DNA from: a virus
Lineage: Duplodnaviria > Caudoviricetes
Virus record (IMG/VR): IMGVR_UViG_2931369376_000001
Coordinates: 16,994-80,993 of that record
DNA: 64,000 nucleotides
Strand: one strand, 5' to 3'
Positions 9,675 to 17,596 of the stretch are shown here, in pieces. Made by a program: the position numbers and the translations under genes. Each line of letters begins with the position of its first letter. Position 1 is the first letter of the stretch. The notes under the pieces are model-generated. The model ran no database searches and was not told where the DNA came from. It saw only the letters and a list, made by a program, of their open reading frames with translations.

Positions 9675-11225
9675 TTATGCGACGTCGGCGAACATGTCGG
9701 CGGCTTTACTCAGGGTTGCTTCGGCGCGCGAGGTCTGCGCCACCTCTGTCTCTTCGTTGCACGCGACATAGTTCACGTCCTCGAGGAAGGCCATGCATAG
9801 CGTGTCAAAAAGGTCCGGGGACGACAGGCCGTCAGCGGCCATGCTCTCTTTGCTGGCGATCTTGTACCGGCCCAGCTCGTCGAAGGCGTAGGGCAGGCGT
9901 GAGCCCTGGTCTATGAGGTCGCGCTTATATTTGGTCGACAGCTTGACCACGCCGTCCTTGATCGCCTCGGTAGCGTGCACGGTGCACTGCGCCCGCTGGT
10001 TGATGAAGCGCTTACGGTTCTCGTTGGAGTGCGGGCGGGCGCCCCATTGGACACCCTGGATGATCATGCTGCCCTCTTGCAGCTCCTGAAGCCGGCGCAG
10101 GAACTGCATGCCCATGGCACTGACGTCGATAACGATGGTGACGTTCGGGAAACGCATTGCGTAGTCACGCAGCTTGACCGCCAGCGGCGTCCAGTCCTCG
10201 GATGCGCTGTAGATTGGGATGTCGACAACCTCAACCCGTCGGCGCCGCTCGTTCGCCATGCGATCGCCCTTGCCGCTGACGCGCAGATGGGTGGCCACCG
10301 TCTTGTCTCGCCCAACGCCCGCGGCGACGTCGACAACGATGAGGTGCCCCCACTCTTCTCCCGGAAGGATTGGACTGGCCAGGCCCATGGCCCGCTCGAT
10401 CATGACCGAACTCAACAGGTACTTGCTGAGGTTGGTCGGGAACATCCCCCGCACTTTGATCTGATATTCCGGCTCGTCGACGCCGCCGTACTGGAGCCGC
10501 TTCTCCTTGATGAACTTGATGCCCACAATCGGGCTTTCTTCGGAGTTGAACACCAGCGGCACCCACGAGCCGCCGCGGTGGATCGACTGGCCGTGGTGGG
10601 TTTCCCAGAAGAACCCGGTCGAGCGCGTGGGCTGGCTGGCCATGATGAAGCGGTTGCGCTCATCAGTCATCGCGCCGCCAATCACGCCAAAGTTTTCGTC
10701 AGGGATCCCCGACGCTTCGTCCGCCAGCCAAAGCAGGTAGTCGGCGTGGGTACCGGCCAGGTTCTCAGGCGAGCCGCGCGGTGCGGTGCGGGTGGTGACG
10801 TACCAGGTGGCGCTGTGCCCGGCCACGTAGACTTTCTCGGCCTGAATCACAACGTAGTCAGCGATCCAGGCATGCGGGCCTTTGCGAATCTCGGCCAGCA
10901 TGGTGGTGATTTCTTTCCACACACCCTCTCGCACCGTCTTGAGTTTCGGCGCGGTCACGTAGGTGTTGGAGTTGAAGTAGCACAGCAGGTGCCAAAGGCA
11001 GATGACGCCGAAGCTCCGGGTTTTACCAGTACCGTGGCCAGACGATACCGATACCCGGCAGCCATAGGCTGAGGACTCATCAAAAAGCTCTTGCTGTTGC
11101 GGTGTGACATCCATCAAACACGCTTCAACCGCAAAGCCGTACAGGTTGAAGGCGTAACGCTCAATGAATTCGGGCCACCTCGGGTCTGCCTCTAATCGCA
11201 GACTCTTGGGTTTCGGCTTGGCCAT
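9675..11225 (-). CDS. pacB: Terminase large subunit (PacB-like)
   Basis: Walker A SGHGTGKT, Walker B LWLADEAS, nuclease motifs VVDVAAG, VIDV and SPDLFD. Confidence 0.9.
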   Translation of the reverse strand: MAKPKPKSLRLEADPRWPEFIERYAFNLYGFAVEACLMDVTPQQQELFDESSAYGCRVSVSSGHGTGKTRSFGVICLWHLLCYFNSNTYVTAPKLKTVREGVWKEITTMLAEIRKGPHAWIADYVVIQAEKVYVAGHSATWYVTTRTAPRGSPENLAGTHADYLLWLADEASGIPDENFGVIGGAMTDERNRFIMASQPTRSTGFFWETHHGQSIHRGGSWVPLVFNSEESPIVGIKFIKEKRLQYGGVDEPEYQIKVRGMFPTNLSKYLLSSVMIERAMGLASPILPGEEWGHLIVVDVAAGVGRDKTVATHLRVSGKGDRMANERRRRVEVVDIPIYSASEDWTPLAVKLRDYAMRFPNVTIVIDVSAMGMQFLRRLQELQEGSMIIQGVQWGARPHSNENRKRFINQRAQCTVHATEAIKDGVVKLSTKYKRDLIDQGSRLPYAFDELGRYKIASKESMAADGLSSPDLFDTLCMAFLEDVNYVACNEETEVAQTSRAEATLSKAADMFADVA

Positions 11226-11276
11226 AGGATCCTTAAACACAAAGGGGCCAGTTCCCCGGCCCCTATCACTCTACGG

Positions 11277-11999
11277 CTACGCCAATCGGACTTTGAGCGA
11301 CGGTTTGCATTCGTGCGTGGCGTTCAGCACGAAAGAATCCCAGTGGCCACCCGACGCCCAGCAACTGCTGCCCGTTGTTTGGGTGTCGCGGAAAAAGCCT
11401 TTGCGGAGTCCGCGGCCCGCGTGCAGCACCATGCCGCCGTCACCGCAGCAGGCCAGCCCTTCCCGCGCCACCTGAAAGCTCACCGCGGCCATGGCGTTGG
11501 CGTCCTCCATCAGCCACATCACGTCGTGCCCACAGAAGCCAGCCATGCGTTCAGGGTAGTGCTCGCTCGCAGCCATAAAGAGAACACCACGCCCGGAATA
11601 CTGCTCCTGCTGGTTTAGCCTGATGCTTCTGATGGTGATTCGCAGGTAGTCGAGCAGCCATGCGTGCGGGCCGACGATGTTCTTGGCCAGCTTGCCGTAT
11701 TGCTCACAGCAGCGAAGCATGTCGCCGAAGGGCACGGCGACCATCGTCAGGGAGTCGGGCCGGCACAGAAGGCGCCACAGCGCGATAGGCGCCAGCGGGC
11801 TGACTACCCCCATTTCCATTGGGTTCCGGTCAGAGGCAATCGACACCCGGCAGCCAGGCAGCCCCACGCACTCGAATGCCCGCGCCAGCCCCTTGTCCAC
11901 TTCTACCCCGCACACCTCCCGAGCGAAGTCGGCCAGGTTGTTGGCGTAGCGGCGGGCGAATGCAGGCCACCGCTCATCCTCTTGAATCAGGCGGTTCAT
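11277..11999 (-). CDS. Degenerate paralog of the terminase ATPase domain
   Basis: Collinear with TerL residues ~15-260 (RWPAFARRY vs RWPEFIERY; GPHAWLLDY vs GPHAWIADY; GFFRDT vs GFFWET). Walker A and Walker B are destroyed. Confidence 0.85.
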   Translation of the reverse strand: MNRLIQEDERWPAFARRYANNLADFAREVCGVEVDKGLARAFECVGLPGCRVSIASDRNPMEMGVVSPLAPIALWRLLCRPDSLTMVAVPFGDMLRCCEQYGKLAKNIVGPHAWLLDYLRITIRSIRLNQQEQYSGRGVLFMAASEHYPERMAGFCGHDVMWLMEDANAMAAVSFQVAREGLACCGDGGMVLHAGRGLRKGFFRDTQTTGSSCWASGGHWDSFVLNATHECKPSLKVRLA

Positions 12000-12595
12000 G
12001 ATGCGGACTCAGCGGACAGCTGCGCCGATTCCCGCTCGTGCTCAGCGATCAGCAAAGCCGCGGCCTTCTCGATCGCCCGCAGTCGTGTTTCTTGTTTCAT
12101 TGGCGCGTGCGGCCACGGCCACACCGTGGTGGCGTAATCCGGCACCAGCACCTGGAGAATGTAGCCGGCGGCGGCGCGCAGCAATTCGTCATTGCTGTAG
12201 CGCAGGTCGCGCTGCGGGTGATACCCCTTCACAACCAGCTGGCGCTGGCGCTCGCTCAGGATGGCGTTCTCGCTTGGGCCCGTCACCGGCATGGCTGGCC
12301 ACAGCGCCAGCGGCTGCTCCCAACCATTCGCAGCCCTTTGCGCCCACTCGCTCGGCTGCATGCGGGCGTATGGGCGGGTCACCGATATACCCTGATCCCG
12401 GCCCCGACGGACCAGGAGCCAGGCTTTAGGCTGCTGGGTTGCATGTTTGGACTGCGCCAGCGATTCCCACACCTGGTACGTCTTTTGTGTGTGGGCGTTC
12501 ACGTATTCGCCGGCGTCGGCGTTGTACGCCAGGTCACTGATGCCAGCATGCCGGCAGGACCGCTCAAAGTGTTCGCGACTGAAGAACAAGGTCAT
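11996..12595 (-). CDS. Phage hypothetical protein
   Basis: ATGA-coupled on both sides. C-terminal ERQRQ..KGY....D..Y...EL..AAAGY...WPW module is common in phage accessory proteins. Confidence 0.65.
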   Translation of the reverse strand: MTLFFSREHFERSCRHAGISDLAYNADAGEYVNAHTQKTYQVWESLAQSKHATQQPKAWLLVRRGRDQGISVTRPYARMQPSEWAQRAANGWEQPLALWPAMPVTGPSENAILSERQRQLVVKGYHPQRDLRYSNDELLRAAAGYILQVLVPDYATTVWPWPHAPMKQETRLRAIEKAAALLIAEHERESAQLSAESAS

Positions 12596-12831
12596 GACGG
12601 GCTCTCTGCCGAATTGGAAAACTGAATCGCCGTTGACGCTGGCATGGCCCCACAATCGTGGCCCCAGGCAGCCAGGCCGGTGTCCTGGAAGGCCCACCGG
12701 TCGCCCGGGAGCTGGTCGCGTTGTACGTGCTCGATCTCGCCCGCGGCATTGCACAACCACAGCTCGTCCCCAAGCTCCAGGTATACCGTCAGCGACTCGC
12801 CGGTCAGGCGATTGGTCACGATTTGGCTCAC
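12592..12831 (-). CDS. Hypothetical protein
   Basis: ATGA/GTGA-coupled member of the operon. Confidence 0.6.
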   Translation of the reverse strand: MSQIVTNRLTGESLTVYLELGDELWLCNAAGEIEHVQRDQLPGDRWAFQDTGLAAWGHDCGAMPASTAIQFSNSAESPS

Positions 12832-13319
12832 TTCATTTCCCCGGTCCTGCGATTGATCTCCGTTGGTTTCGTGAAAGCCCGGGAGAACCGGAACTCCTGG
12901 ATTACCTGGTTGAAATTGGTTTCCACCCGGTCGAAGTACTGGTTACCGTCGGCCATCAGCGCTTGCGCCAGCATGGCCGCGCCTACGCTGCGCCCCTCCA
13001 TCACGTAGGTGGCCAAGCACCGCACCAGGCGCTGTTCGGCATAGGTCCCGCTGAAGCCCGGCAGCAAGCGGCCTGTACCACGCACAGACGTCTCCAAATT
13101 AACTGGACGCGCATCTGCCGTCGGCGGCATGAAATAGAAACCACCGAGTCGCTTGGGCTCCAACCGCGCCAGCTGTCCGTCCTTGCCAAAAATGTGCATT
13201 CCGCACGCGGCCAGGGACTTGAAGATCAAGTTGGCCGTCTCCAGCCGGTATTGCTGGCGTGCGCTCAGCTTCAATGCGGCAGGCGCCGCCGGTACCGCAG
13301 TTGCTGTTTGCATGTGCAT
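12828..13319 (-). CDS. Hypothetical protein
   Basis: Coupled ORF with an AAGG-type RBS. Confidence 0.65.
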   Translation of the reverse strand: MHMQTATAVPAAPAALKLSARQQYRLETANLIFKSLAACGMHIFGKDGQLARLEPKRLGGFYFMPPTADARPVNLETSVRGTGRLLPGFSGTYAEQRLVRCLATYVMEGRSVGAAMLAQALMADGNQYFDRVETNFNQVIQEFRFSRAFTKPTEINRRTGEMK

Positions 13320-13322
13320 CCC

Positions 13323-13493
13323 TTAAATCTTGAGCCGCAGCTGGGCGCGGTCACATTCGTTTTCACCGTGTGGGAGCTTGTGGGCCTGGGCCTCACAGTT
13401 CCGGCGCCCGCAATCACGGCAGTAGGTGTAGGCGGGGGCGTTTCGTGGCCTCCGCCAGATGACGCGATCGCTTTCGCAAAAACGGCAGTCCAT
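13323..13493 (-). CDS. 56-aa zinc-ribbon protein (MDCRFCESDRVIW...YCRDCGRRN...)
   Basis: My translation. Two CxxC pairs and an AGGA RBS; below the ORF-track cutoff. Confidence 0.6.
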   Translation of the reverse strand: MDCRFCESDRVIWRRPRNAPAYTYCRDCGRRNCEAQAHKLPHGENECDRAQLRLKI

Positions 13494-13495
13494 CG

Positions 13496-13520
13496 GTCCT
13501 GTCCCGGTTTATCCCCGGAC
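13496..13520 (-). promoter_or_regulatory. Extended operator GTCCGGGGAT-N5-GGGACAGGAC
   Basis: 20 of 25 nt are identical to 35392-35416 in transcription orientation. Confidence 0.6.
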
Positions 13521-14815
13521 TACACGGGGCGTTGGTCGATCATCGCTTGCGCGTACACCCATCGGCGATTAGCAAAGGCGGTTAGGCTTTCGCCCTCTGC
13601 CTGCACCAGCGGACACGTCACTGCGAAATCATCGCGCAGGTCTACCAGGTACGCGTCCAGGGGTTTGCTGGTTACCTTGGGTGCCTGGGCCGGGTCGGAT
13701 TGCATTTGTGCGGATTTCTCCACGACGGTGGGCAACTTGACGCTATGGAAAGCCAGGCAGATAGCCTCAAACAAATCGGCGGAACTGTTTGCCCGCGGGC
13801 TCCCTTCAGGGGCGCCCACCCGATAGCGGGCCTCAGCCGTGAAATGGAATGGAAGCTTTGCCCCGAACAGCTCAAGCGCGGTTTCGTGGTTTCGGTAGGT
13901 GGGCCAGCAGTGTTTCAGCTTCAAGGCACCGTCTTTGATCGCCTCAGCAGCGCGAACACTGCATTCCGCGCGCCGGTTGAAGAACCGAGCGCCGCCAGCC
14001 TTCTTGGACAAGGGATTACCCATGGTCATGCCGTACCGCTTCACCGTTGGGCTCGACATCGCTTCCAGGCAGCGCAGAAACTCCAGGCCATGACCGAGTA
14101 CGTCTACCAAGATCGTGGCATCTGGCAGCGCCGACGCACACTGGAACAGGTGTTTGGCCTGTTGCTCGATGTCTCCAGGGTCGCCATGAATTGGGTAATC
14201 CACCACTTCAACAAACCGCTGGCAGCGCCCTACCTGCGTCGGGCTGTCATAGACCCTCATGTGGGCGGCTACCGTGAGGCCTGGGCGGATACCGCCACCC
14301 ACACGCACACCGAAGACATCCTTGGCCACAACGCCATCAGGGATAGGGCTGTCGATGTCCAGCGCTCGCTCGATGTCGGTGCCAGCGACGAGGTACATGC
14401 CGGGATCGCGTGGAGCTGCCTGGAGAATTGCAGGCACGTCGCTGTTGGTGGCCTGGGCGGGGGGCTGTACTTTCCCACTGACAACGATTTGCAGCGGGCC
14501 GGGCTTCTGGACACGGACCACATCCTTGATGGCGCTGGCCATAGGCGACGTAAGGAAGCTGTTCAGCAGCTGCCGCAGGCGGTAATGGGTCTGTGCATAG
14601 CGCGCCTTGCGGCCAAAGCCTTCCTGCACCGATACAGGCTTGCACCCTGGGATCTCAACCCAGTAGTGCACGCCCCGATCAGCGTTCAGTCTATCGGGCT
14701 CCGTCACTTTGACGCCCTGGGTGATGAGCCATTGCTTGAACACCGATACATTGCTGGCCAGCAGCAGGTCCGTGTCGTGCTTTTGTCCTTTCGCTTTTGC
14801 TGCGGTGTTCGACAT
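13520..14815 (-). CDS. Chimeric protein with a degenerate terminase nuclease-domain paralog
   Basis: 13748-14398 is collinear with the TerL C-terminal half (IERA..SPI, TVAAHMRV, VEVVD.PI, RFFNRRAECSVRAAEAIKDG, SADLFEAICLAF). The first catalytic Asp is lost. Confidence 0.85.
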   Translation of the reverse strand: MSNTAAKAKGQKHDTDLLLASNVSVFKQWLITQGVKVTEPDRLNADRGVHYWVEIPGCKPVSVQEGFGRKARYAQTHYRLRQLLNSFLTSPMASAIKDVVRVQKPGPLQIVVSGKVQPPAQATNSDVPAILQAAPRDPGMYLVAGTDIERALDIDSPIPDGVVAKDVFGVRVGGGIRPGLTVAAHMRVYDSPTQVGRCQRFVEVVDYPIHGDPGDIEQQAKHLFQCASALPDATILVDVLGHGLEFLRCLEAMSSPTVKRYGMTMGNPLSKKAGGARFFNRRAECSVRAAEAIKDGALKLKHCWPTYRNHETALELFGAKLPFHFTAEARYRVGAPEGSPRANSSADLFEAICLAFHSVKLPTVVEKSAQMQSDPAQAPKVTSKPLDAYLVDLRDDFAVTCPLVQAEGESLTAFANRRWVYAQAMIDQRPV

Positions 14816-15105
14816 CAGTCAGCTCCTAACGGGTTGGCCGTGAATGGCCTCAGGTTCTCGGGGCGCCCGCGGCGAATGGCCTTGGGACGCTTTTCAACGA
14901 CAGGCTTGAGCCACAGCTGTCCGGTTTTGAACAGGAACAGCTCCCACAGCCCAAGCTTGATTTTGGTAGCGCCCTTCTCGTACAGCCGCCAGGACTCGCG
15001 ACTCACGTAGATCAGCTCACCCGCGGCGGTTTCGCTCAGGTTCACGTTCTTGCGGGCCTTCCGGATGTTTTGCGGGGTCGGCTGGCGATCGGCGGCGAGC
15101 GTCAT
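14815..15105 (-). CDS. XRE/Cro-type HTH protein
   Basis: IRKARKNVNLSETAAGELIYVSRESWRLYEKG. Confidence 0.75.
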   Translation of the reverse strand: MTLAADRQPTPQNIRKARKNVNLSETAAGELIYVSRESWRLYEKGATKIKLGLWELFLFKTGQLWLKPVVEKRPKAIRRGRPENLRPFTANPLGAD

Positions 15106-16299: not shown

Positions 16300-16320
16300 A
16301 AAAAAACCCGCAACTGCGGG
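16300..16320 (-). terminator. Intrinsic terminator upstream of terS
   Basis: CCCGCA/TGCGGG stem followed by U7. Confidence 0.75.
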
Positions 16321-16574
16321 CCGGATCCTGAAAGGATTAGCCCGCCGAAACGGGCTCCCCAATACCGTATAGGGGCCGCCACGGCTGGCGCTGCAATGGT
16401 GTCGATACCATTTCCCCAATTTTGACGTTATCCAACATCGAATACCTGATGGCGACTCCCTGTCGAAAGCCGCCACAAGCGCGGAACCGTGTGAACAATC
16501 CCATCGCCCCAGTACCTAGCGCACGACGCCCCGCATGGCCACCCTATGCCGGGTGGCTGGCTTACAAACCGGTG

Positions 16575-17216
16575 TTAGAACAGGGCTTGCTGTACTGCTT
16601 CGCTGACCTGCTGCACCGTGCATACAGGATGATCGAATTCGATAAGGGCAGATTCGCGCTGTTTGCTCGCAATTCGCTCTTTTACGGACACTGACAGTTC
16701 GGAAATCAAGCGCTCCAGCTTTCCGCCGCCGCGCAGCTCTTCGAAAGCAGCGCCGTGATGCTTGCGGATGACCGCCAGTGACGCGCTCAGCTCGATGGAA
16801 ATGTCTGCAACCTTGCCCAGTAGGACACGATCCATGCTGGCGCCTTCGACGCTGATGGCCGTCACCTGGGCCAAGCCTTCCAGGTAGCGCTGGTTGTATT
16901 TGCTCAGGACTGCGGTCAACACGCCGGTGATCAATGCCTGGTTGCCCTCTTCGGGAGCCAGGCCCAGGCTGTCGGTGCGACCCAACAGGTAGTCCGTGGT
17001 CACGCTGTAGAGGTCTGCCAGCAGTTGAAGGTTTCGCAGGCTTGGCGATCGGTGACCATTTTCAAACAGGCTGATCATGGTCAGGTTGGAGTGGCCAAGG
17101 CGCTTGGCCACTTCAAGATCCTTGAGGCCAGCGGCGCGGCGAGCTTTTACCAGTCGGCTGGCGACGATATCCCGCAGTGCCTGCTCTTCGTCCTTGGCAC
17201 GACTGGCAGGGCTCAT
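16575..17216 (-). CDS. XRE-family HTH regulator
   Basis: RLVKARRAAGLKDLEVAKRLGHSNLTMISLFENGHRSPS..LADLYSVTTDYLLG. Start chosen from the GGGGAGGG RBS. Confidence 0.8.
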   Translation of the reverse strand: MSPASRAKDEEQALRDIVASRLVKARRAAGLKDLEVAKRLGHSNLTMISLFENGHRSPSLRNLQLLADLYSVTTDYLLGRTDSLGLAPEEGNQALITGVLTAVLSKYNQRYLEGLAQVTAISVEGASMDRVLLGKVADISIELSASLAVIRKHHGAAFEELRGGGKLERLISELSVSVKERIASKQRESALIEFDHPVCTVQQVSEAVQQALF

Positions 17217-17596
17217 GCCCTCCCCGCAGTCCTTGGATTCGAACATCGCCAAGCTTTCGGCGGCGGCTTCAACCTGCCCTCCGTCTGCCAGCTCTACCCC
17301 TTTCCCGCTATCACCGTTTGCAGACACTTTGACGTCACCTTTACGACCAACCCTGTCAGTGGCGCCATTAAATTGTATCCCCGTACCATTCGCAACCCCG
17401 CAATGCCTAAAAAGTTCCCATGGCACCGTGGTTTTTTTGCCAATGTTCTATTTTTTGGATCCGGTTTGATTGGGATATAGGCGTCTTTTTAACGACAATC
17501 GCAGGCGGATCAAATCAAATTGCCATCATCGACCGCCCGTCCGGCCAATACCGCTGAATATGCCGGCAAAGCCACTGATAAAGCGGCTTTCCTACG

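Follow-up and report, generated by a model that had tools for sequence, protein, structure and literature searches.

Two apparently non-catalytic derivatives of the PacB-type large terminase in the packaging operon of a Pseudomonas phage-plasmid

No protein of tailed phages is more conserved than the large terminase subunit (TerL), which is also a prime target of pattern-recognition immunity in bacteria. Why would a packaging operon that encodes an intact TerL also encode copies of both TerL domains from which catalytic residues are gone? The question is raised by a 64,000-nt stretch of the viral record IMGVR_UViG_2931369376_000001 (positions 16,994 to 80,993), here called the window, which has a G+C content of ∼61% and carries its packaging operon on the minus strand. 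A sequence-only reading had described the interval between the genes for the small (terS) and large (terL) terminase subunits as holding two intact open reading frames (ORFs), which together rebuild a split and dead copy of the phage's own TerL. According to the annotation of plasmid CP048608.1 the interval holds seven genes, for which we coined the names o96, nucP, o56, o163, o79, o199 and atpP. Two of them, atpP and nucP, lie where that reading had placed its ORFs, and BLASTP and Foldseek confirmed their homology to TerL. The window almost certainly derives from a P1-like myovirus phage-plasmid of ∼80 kb of fluorescent pseudomonads, whose packaging operon encodes two separately evolved, protein-coding and non-catalytic derivatives of a PacB-type TerL (Table 1).

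The assignment as a P1-like myovirus phage-plasmid follows from a TerL of the P1 PacB type (34-37% identity to pacB of P1, P7 and D6), from the presence of portal and tail sheath genes, and from near-identity to CP048608.1, an 81-kb circular plasmid of Pseudomonas fluorescens DR133. The window also codes for a protein with a DarB-like segment and for several methyltransferases.

Residues 5-239 of atpP align with TerL residues 16-243 at 31% identity (BLASTP against the TerL ORF 9675-11240 on the minus strand, E 3e-23), and phrog_5902 is matched by both proteins. The similarity is strongest N-terminally, with 44% identity over the first ∼50 aa, which form the helices before the lost P-loop. The Walker A motif of TerL (SGHGTGKT) is replaced in atpP and in all 30+ short family members by a variable acidic loop lacking GK[ST]. 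Walker B (LWLADEASG in TerL) reads LWLMEDA in atpP, with ED for DE, and xE[D/G/N]A in every short family member, while the adenine-binding Q motif is lost (TPQQQELF in TerL, DKGLARAF in atpP). In a few short matches the P-loop is intact; these resemble fragments of genuine TerLs. Relatives of atpP fall into ∼40 clusters at 50% identity (185-262 aa), all of which keep the N-terminal motif D.RW..F..RY..DL..FA.EVC and PE.LAG. In the ATPase-domain tree the atpP family forms, one long-branch outlier aside, a single weakly supported group outside all sampled TerLs, with an internal diversity far above that of TerL. Judged from these sequences, atpP belongs to a deeper and broader family, which may be of older origin. 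Searches of PDB sequences with the atpP and TerL profiles gave no match.

The second copy, nucP, matches the other half of TerL, with 33% identity between its residues 135-389 and TerL residues 268-517 (BLASTP, E 3e-32). Its AlphaFold2 (AF2) model, with a predicted local distance difference test (pLDDT) score of 72, consists of an N-domain, a disordered linker, an RNase H-like domain, a second linker and a hairpin (aa 388-427). The RNase H-like fold was confirmed by Foldseek, with the TerL nucleases of E217 and Sf6 as top matches (probability 1.00, E 6e-7 and weaker), followed by the terminase nucleases of G20c, HK97 and herpesviruses (human cytomegalovirus). Five acidic positions are invariant in 19 TerLs. 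In nucP, D299 is changed to Arg, D307 to Gly and D474 to Glu, while D367 and D471 are kept; in nucP numbering, R171 stands at D299 and G179 at D307, and D238 and D347 are retained. Homologues of nucP comprise 24 full-length clusters (393-440 aa, 39-93% identity), all from Pseudomonas contigs of ∼80 kb or from metagenomes, and their alignment is invariant at the substituted Arg, at D238 and D347, in much of the N-domain and in nearly the whole C-tail. The loss of key catalytic residues, which the sequence-only reading had noticed in the window, therefore extends over both families, as seen in the motif table for atpP and in the nucP alignment. Mutation of these catalytic residues abolishes the ATPase and nuclease activity of TerL. 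Since the missing residues exclude catalysis, atpP and nucP must act by binding.

How did a dead nuclease fold come to lie between two other modules? Several loci of the survey described below (loci are numbered with the prefix L) encode a protein at the syntenic position in which the fold is missing. In L002 (P. putida pKF715C) this protein has the nucP N-domain and C-tail with an unrelated middle (hhalign), in L021/L042, whose TerL is 85% identical to that of the window, it consists of N-domain and C-tail only (196 aa), the L016 protein has the C-tail and no TerL-like middle, and the L003 protein has only the C-tail in common with nucP. The C-tail also ends otherwise unrelated syntenic proteins in L002, L003, L016 and the whole of clade B. 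These graft-less proteins indicate that the nuclease fold was grafted into an older protein with constant ends. An Atlas feature search with the L016 protein gave no usable match. The N-domain, folded alone, gave only background-level matches (VIA Z 6.2 for the METTL16 VCR/KA1, 6.0 for the N-terminal domain of RNase H3 and 5.8 for LsoA); Foldseek returned E values of at least 0.4, and the Atlas only viral hypothetical proteins of ∼100 aa. Residues 57-100 show a weak similarity to the Walker A region of TerL (E 0.78) and were considered as a remnant ATPase domain, but the topology of the N-domain model is unlike a P-loop. We also observed that the C-terminus of TerL (9675-9720; ..A[AE]D[ML]FADVA) resembles the start of the nucP C-tail (..L.DLRDDFA[VI]); the stretch is short, but TerL and nucP might share a docking motif there.

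Maximum-likelihood analysis of the nuclease domains recovered the grafts as monophyletic (100/100) on a stem of 1.3 substitutions per site, and their clade is sister to the TerLs of the element's own lineage, with the TerL of P. psychrotolerans outside (97/87). From this position, the graft is a copy of the own-lineage terminase. The proposal that the phage's own TerL had been copied therefore holds for the nuclease part; atpP lies outside all sampled TerLs. The idea of one split copy does not stand: a graft in an older protein and a member of a deeper family do not make up two halves, and each occurs alone. Trees and module survey both speak against atpP and nucP as halves of one duplicate, and the two genes lie 1.5 kb from each other, with four others between them, while the order of their domains is the reverse of that in TerL.

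The survey consisted of a TerL-profile search of genome, viral and metagenome contigs, in which the ORFs of each locus were scanned with module profiles and duplicate loci were merged by hand. In clade A (TerL identity to the window at least 84%) 15 of 16 loci carry the graft and 15 carry atpP, and the order terS-o96-nucP-o56-o16x-o8x-o199-atpP-terL is kept in 15 of the 16. In clade B (63-70%) the graft is found in none of 16 loci and atpP in eight; five have another TerL-derived ORF standing alone downstream of terL and one upstream. The three distant loci (55% or less) have neither graft nor atpP nor any other TerL-derived copy. Where present, atpP lies directly upstream of an intact terL and ends 51 nt before it in the window and in 23 of the 32 surveyed loci; no cassette is inserted in the Burkholderia plasmid pBVIE05, where terL directly adjoins the gene before it. 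The pair does not co-occur strictly, since L013 of clade A lacks atpP, with a clean gap of ∼55 nt before terL and a TerL that differs from that of L009 by a dN (nonsynonymous substitutions per site) of 0.025, while the graft is absent from L021 and throughout clade B. All absences of atpP or graft were clean, without decayed remnants, and five clade B loci have no TerL-derived copy of any sort. In L046 (clade B) two atpP-like genes stand in tandem directly upstream of terL (412-1056 and 1026-1853). An intein (Hint and LAGLIDADG) interrupts terL in or beside the Walker A region in L003 (8010-10286), L008 (10437-13019), L034, L035 and L040; terL of the window has none.

The stand-alone ORFs of clade B (L016:5940-6824, L024:9589-10473, L026:9593-10312, L030:9555-10442 and L048:7110-8024) lie directly downstream of terL and code for a TerL nuclease domain of 239-304 aa. 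Val instead of Arg stands at the first catalytic Asp, and D307 is missing from most of them. Their identity is 40-45% where their TerLs are 91% identical, with a ratio of nonsynonymous to synonymous substitution rates (dN/dS) of 0.27-0.47, and they form a clade apart from the graft in a tree whose deep nodes are weak. As the Asp-to-Val ORFs are separate from the Asp-to-Arg graft, dead copies of TerL domains, which are optional and variable by their distribution, probably arose more than once in this group. Some of the stand-alone ORFs have a C-terminal extension (DAW.FDLDRI...GASSGDTLRLL). A third configuration is seen in L028 (678-1739), where a 353-aa protein ∼6 kb upstream of terL combines a long, predicted helical N-terminus with a weak TerL nuclease-like domain.

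Are these genes kept by selection? We calculated dN/dS by the Nei-Gojobori method from codon alignments of syntenic genes of ten loci, with bootstrap 95% confidence intervals (CIs), and relied on the closer pairs because distant pairs were saturated at synonymous sites. The ratio was 0.17-0.23 for nucP (95% CI 0.10-0.37) and 0.16-0.35 for atpP (0.08-0.49), compared to 0.02-0.07 for TerL and 0.13-0.18 for terS. The N-domain is the most constrained part of nucP (0.05-0.19), and the nuclease-like part reached 0.21-0.29 in unsaturated pairs. Because all 95% CIs stay below 0.5, decay is excluded and both genes are under purifying selection. None of the 32 surveyed loci has an interrupted copy of atpP or nucP, so that the ORFs are intact as proposed, and the preference for retained function over decay is likewise upheld by the CIs and by full-length nucP clusters down to 39% identity. 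The ratios of atpP and nucP are comparable to those of terS and the other cassette genes (0.1-0.3); the high rate of both copies is notable compared to TerL, not compared to the neighbourhood.

Alleles of the two genes change independently of the terminase. Across one set of loci, identity to the window is 85-92% for TerL, 59-78% for terS, 41-61% for nucP and 31-76% for atpP. Between the window and L012, TerL is 99%, terS 94% and nucP 93% identical, but atpP only 67%, and the synonymous divergence (dS) is 0.63 in atpP and 0.07-0.25 in its flanks. Such an excess in dS points to recombination that replaced the allele. In the pair L010 and L014 it is nucP that diverges, with a dN of 0.17 compared to 0.004 for TerL.

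For the function of the copies we favour, if only tentatively, a reading based on sequence and gene order, in which binding of atpP and nucP, as optional accessory subunits, would modulate pac-type packaging. Both genes lie inside the terS-terL operon and are translationally coupled. Stop and start codons overlap at terS/o96 (ATGA), o96/nucP (TGATG), o163/o79, o79/o199 and o199/atpP (ATGA); at these five junctions the start/stop coupling claimed by the sequence-only reading is present, while atpP and terL are separated by a 51-nt spacer with a hairpin. In phage lambda the N-terminus of TerL (gpA) binds the small subunit gpNu1. A packaging role is also favoured because atpP is most TerL-like in its N-terminal helices, because the docking-like N-domain and C-tail are the best-conserved parts of nucP and recur in every clade A and B locus, while the middle varies, and because the model predicts a dead fold between disordered linkers, as expected of a tethered DNA- or TerL-binding module. 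With its kept N-terminal helices, atpP would take the usual place of TerL, either on TerS or on an adjacent TerL. For its part, nucP would be anchored by N-domain and C-tail and carry the non-cutting nuclease fold on flexible linkers. Such a fold could hold on to DNA or act as a competitor of the TerL nuclease, and in this way tune pac cleavage or the termination of headful packaging. A translationally coupled message shared with TerS would bring both copies into position before TerL acts. Several findings weigh against a packaging role: both genes are dispensable in nature (L013, L021 and five clade B loci), their alleles have been exchanged without those of TerL and TerS (window and L012), a terminator-like hairpin lies between atpP and terL, and the fold search with the nucP N-domain gave no functional lead.

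Since both genes are naturally dispensable and their alleles are swapped, there is room for roles in conflict. The sequence-only reading had suggested either decoys for terminase-sensing immunity such as Avs or dominant-negative modulators of packaging. The dead folds might be terminase mimics directed against host immunity, which occupy or shield against the sensors Avs1-3 and Upx without triggering them, a role that we consider unlikely. SeAvs3 reads active-site residues and bound ATP (PMC13601566), which are exactly the features absent from atpP and nucP, and an anti-defence role for T4 vs.8 was floated by the authors who described it (PMC13601566). In line with mimicry, both genes are optional, with alleles that are swapped and a dN of 5-40 times the TerL value, and dead copies, of both domains, probably originated repeatedly, as the changes from D to R in the graft and from D to V in the solo ORFs suggest. 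However, sensors may simply ignore copies that lack the recognised active-site features, which would fit equally well, or a fold mimic may activate them instead, as vs.8 is toxic with EcAvs2 (PMC13601566). The late-operon position is also unusual for anti-defence genes, the dN/dS is not above that of neighbouring cassette genes, PADLOC and other families gave no matches, and we found no anti-Avs terminase decoy described in the literature. Just as doubtful is the wider proposal that phages repeatedly copy single TerL domains, erase the catalytic sites and co-express the non-activating look-alikes to blunt Avs1-3 and Upx, with both TerL halves used here and the nuclease look-alike probably invented twice.

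Less probable still are weapons against rivals, by which dead subunits would, as dominant negatives, poison or mis-assemble the terminase of related co-resident phages, phage-plasmids or satellites while the own TerL would be resistant. Satellites are known to act on terminase subunits, and copies from the own TerL lineage would fit closely related terminases; high allelic diversity, replacement by recombination and optional presence would suit such a role. Against it, the copies share a transcript with the element's own terminase, to which they should be most similar; neither a satellite nor a rival element was identified, and a simple scan of the region found no promoter-like site that would support expression in the plasmid state. 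Functionless leftovers of duplication, open by chance in a genome of 61% G+C, deserve hardly any credence and are already contradicted. Long shadow ORFs are indeed common in the window (e.g., 436-459 aa on the opposite strand), and the catalytic residues are lost, but neither the CIs of dN/dS nor the persistence of full-length orthologues fits this explanation, several motifs including the substituted Arg are invariant, and the absences are clean. Modulation of packaging stays the reading that we prefer.

Are there precedents for such copies? For Rak2-like jumbo phages (CBB_274 of vB_PcaM_CBB), phiM12 and phiN3, a single paragraph mentions a truncated large terminase encoded immediately upstream of terL (PMC5259590). 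Judged by description and position only, CBB_274 resembles atpP as a partial copy of TerL that stands alone just ahead of the genuine terL; it stems, however, from the T4 gp17-type TerL lineage, and no nuclease-domain counterpart was described. T4 vs.8, a stand-alone ATPase-like relative of gp17 from one phage group (PMC13601566), is by description likewise a separate protein homologous to the TerL ATPase domain, but it keeps Walker A and B, both lost in atpP, and activates EcAvs2. Compared to the own PacB-type TerL, both copies are sequence homologues with 31-33% identity, but they contain one domain each, lack Walker A, the Q motif, the catalytic Glu and the first catalytic Asp, and in nucP two foreign modules are added. 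The vestigial nuclease domain of phi29 gp16 is kept for binding. This C-terminal domain, termed a 'vestigial nuclease' (PMC7672431), shares with nucP a TerL-type RNase H-like fold without catalysis, but it is part of an active packaging ATPase, whereas the fold of nucP is fused to non-ATPase modules and the intact TerL is encoded by a gene of its own. An extra dead nuclease-domain paralogue of TerL, grafted or stand-alone, was not found described in the literature, and literature searches for a terminase decoy or dead paralogue gave no direct match. The earlier claim that the pair is without precedent can therefore be kept for the pair and for the nuclease half, but not for the ATPase half. 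atpP is a further member of a barely described kind, and the dead nuclease-domain paralogue is one for which we found no description.

Dead copies of both TerL domains, kept by selection in at least three configurations within one group of phage-plasmids, suggest a general use for terminase look-alikes. If they are regulators of the packaging motor, they would add a new layer of control to pac-type packaging; alternatively, they could be mimics in host-phage or phage-phage conflict. Nature provides presence/absence variants with nearly identical TerL and TerS (L009 compared to L013, L021 compared to the rest), and a cultivable host strain, P. fluorescens DR133 with plasmid CP048608.1, is on record.

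Table 1. Packaging operon of the window: positions of genes, domains and the hairpin before terL
Feature	Position	Strand	Evidence or remark
terS, small terminase, 373 aa	15102..16223	-	Pfam Terminase_2 1.4e-11, 45.6 bits (cut-off 26.1); phrog_51 1e-16
o96, small helix-turn-helix (HTH)-like protein	14815..15105	-	weak HTH_31/MqsA-type matches; HTH regulator in the pKF715C annotation; both clades
nucP, 431 aa: N-domain, linker, dead TerL nuclease fold, linker, C-terminal helical hairpin	13520..14815	-	
nucP N-domain, aa 10-95, alpha+beta	14531..14788	-	AF2 pLDDT 82
nucP dead RNase H-like nuclease domain, aa 137-360	13736..14407	-	TerL identity, Foldseek, tree
nucP C-tail, aa 388-431, helical hairpin, nearly invariant LRDDFA..CPL..E..AFA.RRW.YAQAM	13523..13654	-	
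o56, zinc-ribbon-like CxxC...CxxC peptide	13323..13493	-	sequence; 59-93% identity in relatives
o163	12828..13319	-	clade A only
o79	12592..12831	-	CP048608.1 annotation; gene calls in relatives
o199	11996..12595	-	stop overlaps atpP start
atpP, 240 aa, dead TerL ATPase-domain copy	11277..11999	-	
9-bp GC-rich hairpin, then T tract	11243..11264	-	between atpP and terL
terL, Walker A/B and nuclease acidic residues intact	9675..11225	-	phrog_2 5e-33; phrog_5902 3e-69

In the order of transcription, an HTH regulator gene (16575-17426) is followed by terS, o96, nucP, o56, o163, o79, o199, atpP and terL. The 350-nt gap between the regulator gene and terS contains a terminator-like hairpin with a T7 run (16305-16322, minus strand). 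The N-terminal ∼100 aa of TerS are rich in Lys, Pro and Ala, and paired Cys motifs (CCRWC...CPEC) suggest a zinc ribbon. In Pfam, NCBIfam and PADLOC, nucP, atpP and the five small genes of the cassette had no matches other than the weak HTH matches of o96, which is 54-93% identical in relatives, and the cassette genes other than atpP and nucP showed no similarity to TerL. A mechanically called 254-aa ORF (11996-12760) represents two genes, o79 in its 5' part and o199. The C-terminal ∼80 aa of o199 (11996-12240) are a widespread phage domain that matches the C-terminal ends of eight PHROG families, among them phrog_9763 (1e-16), none with a known function and some with proteins of 500-685 aa; tblastn of o199 against phage records gave no match.

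In the 75 nt before terL of L002-L023, the hairpin is kept with compensatory changes in its stem, both in clade A and in clade B and also where atpP is absent. It lies upstream of the ribosome-binding site of terL and could serve as attenuator, terminator or mRNA-stability element and so set the level of TerL. In most of these loci a GTAGAGTG box precedes the hairpin.

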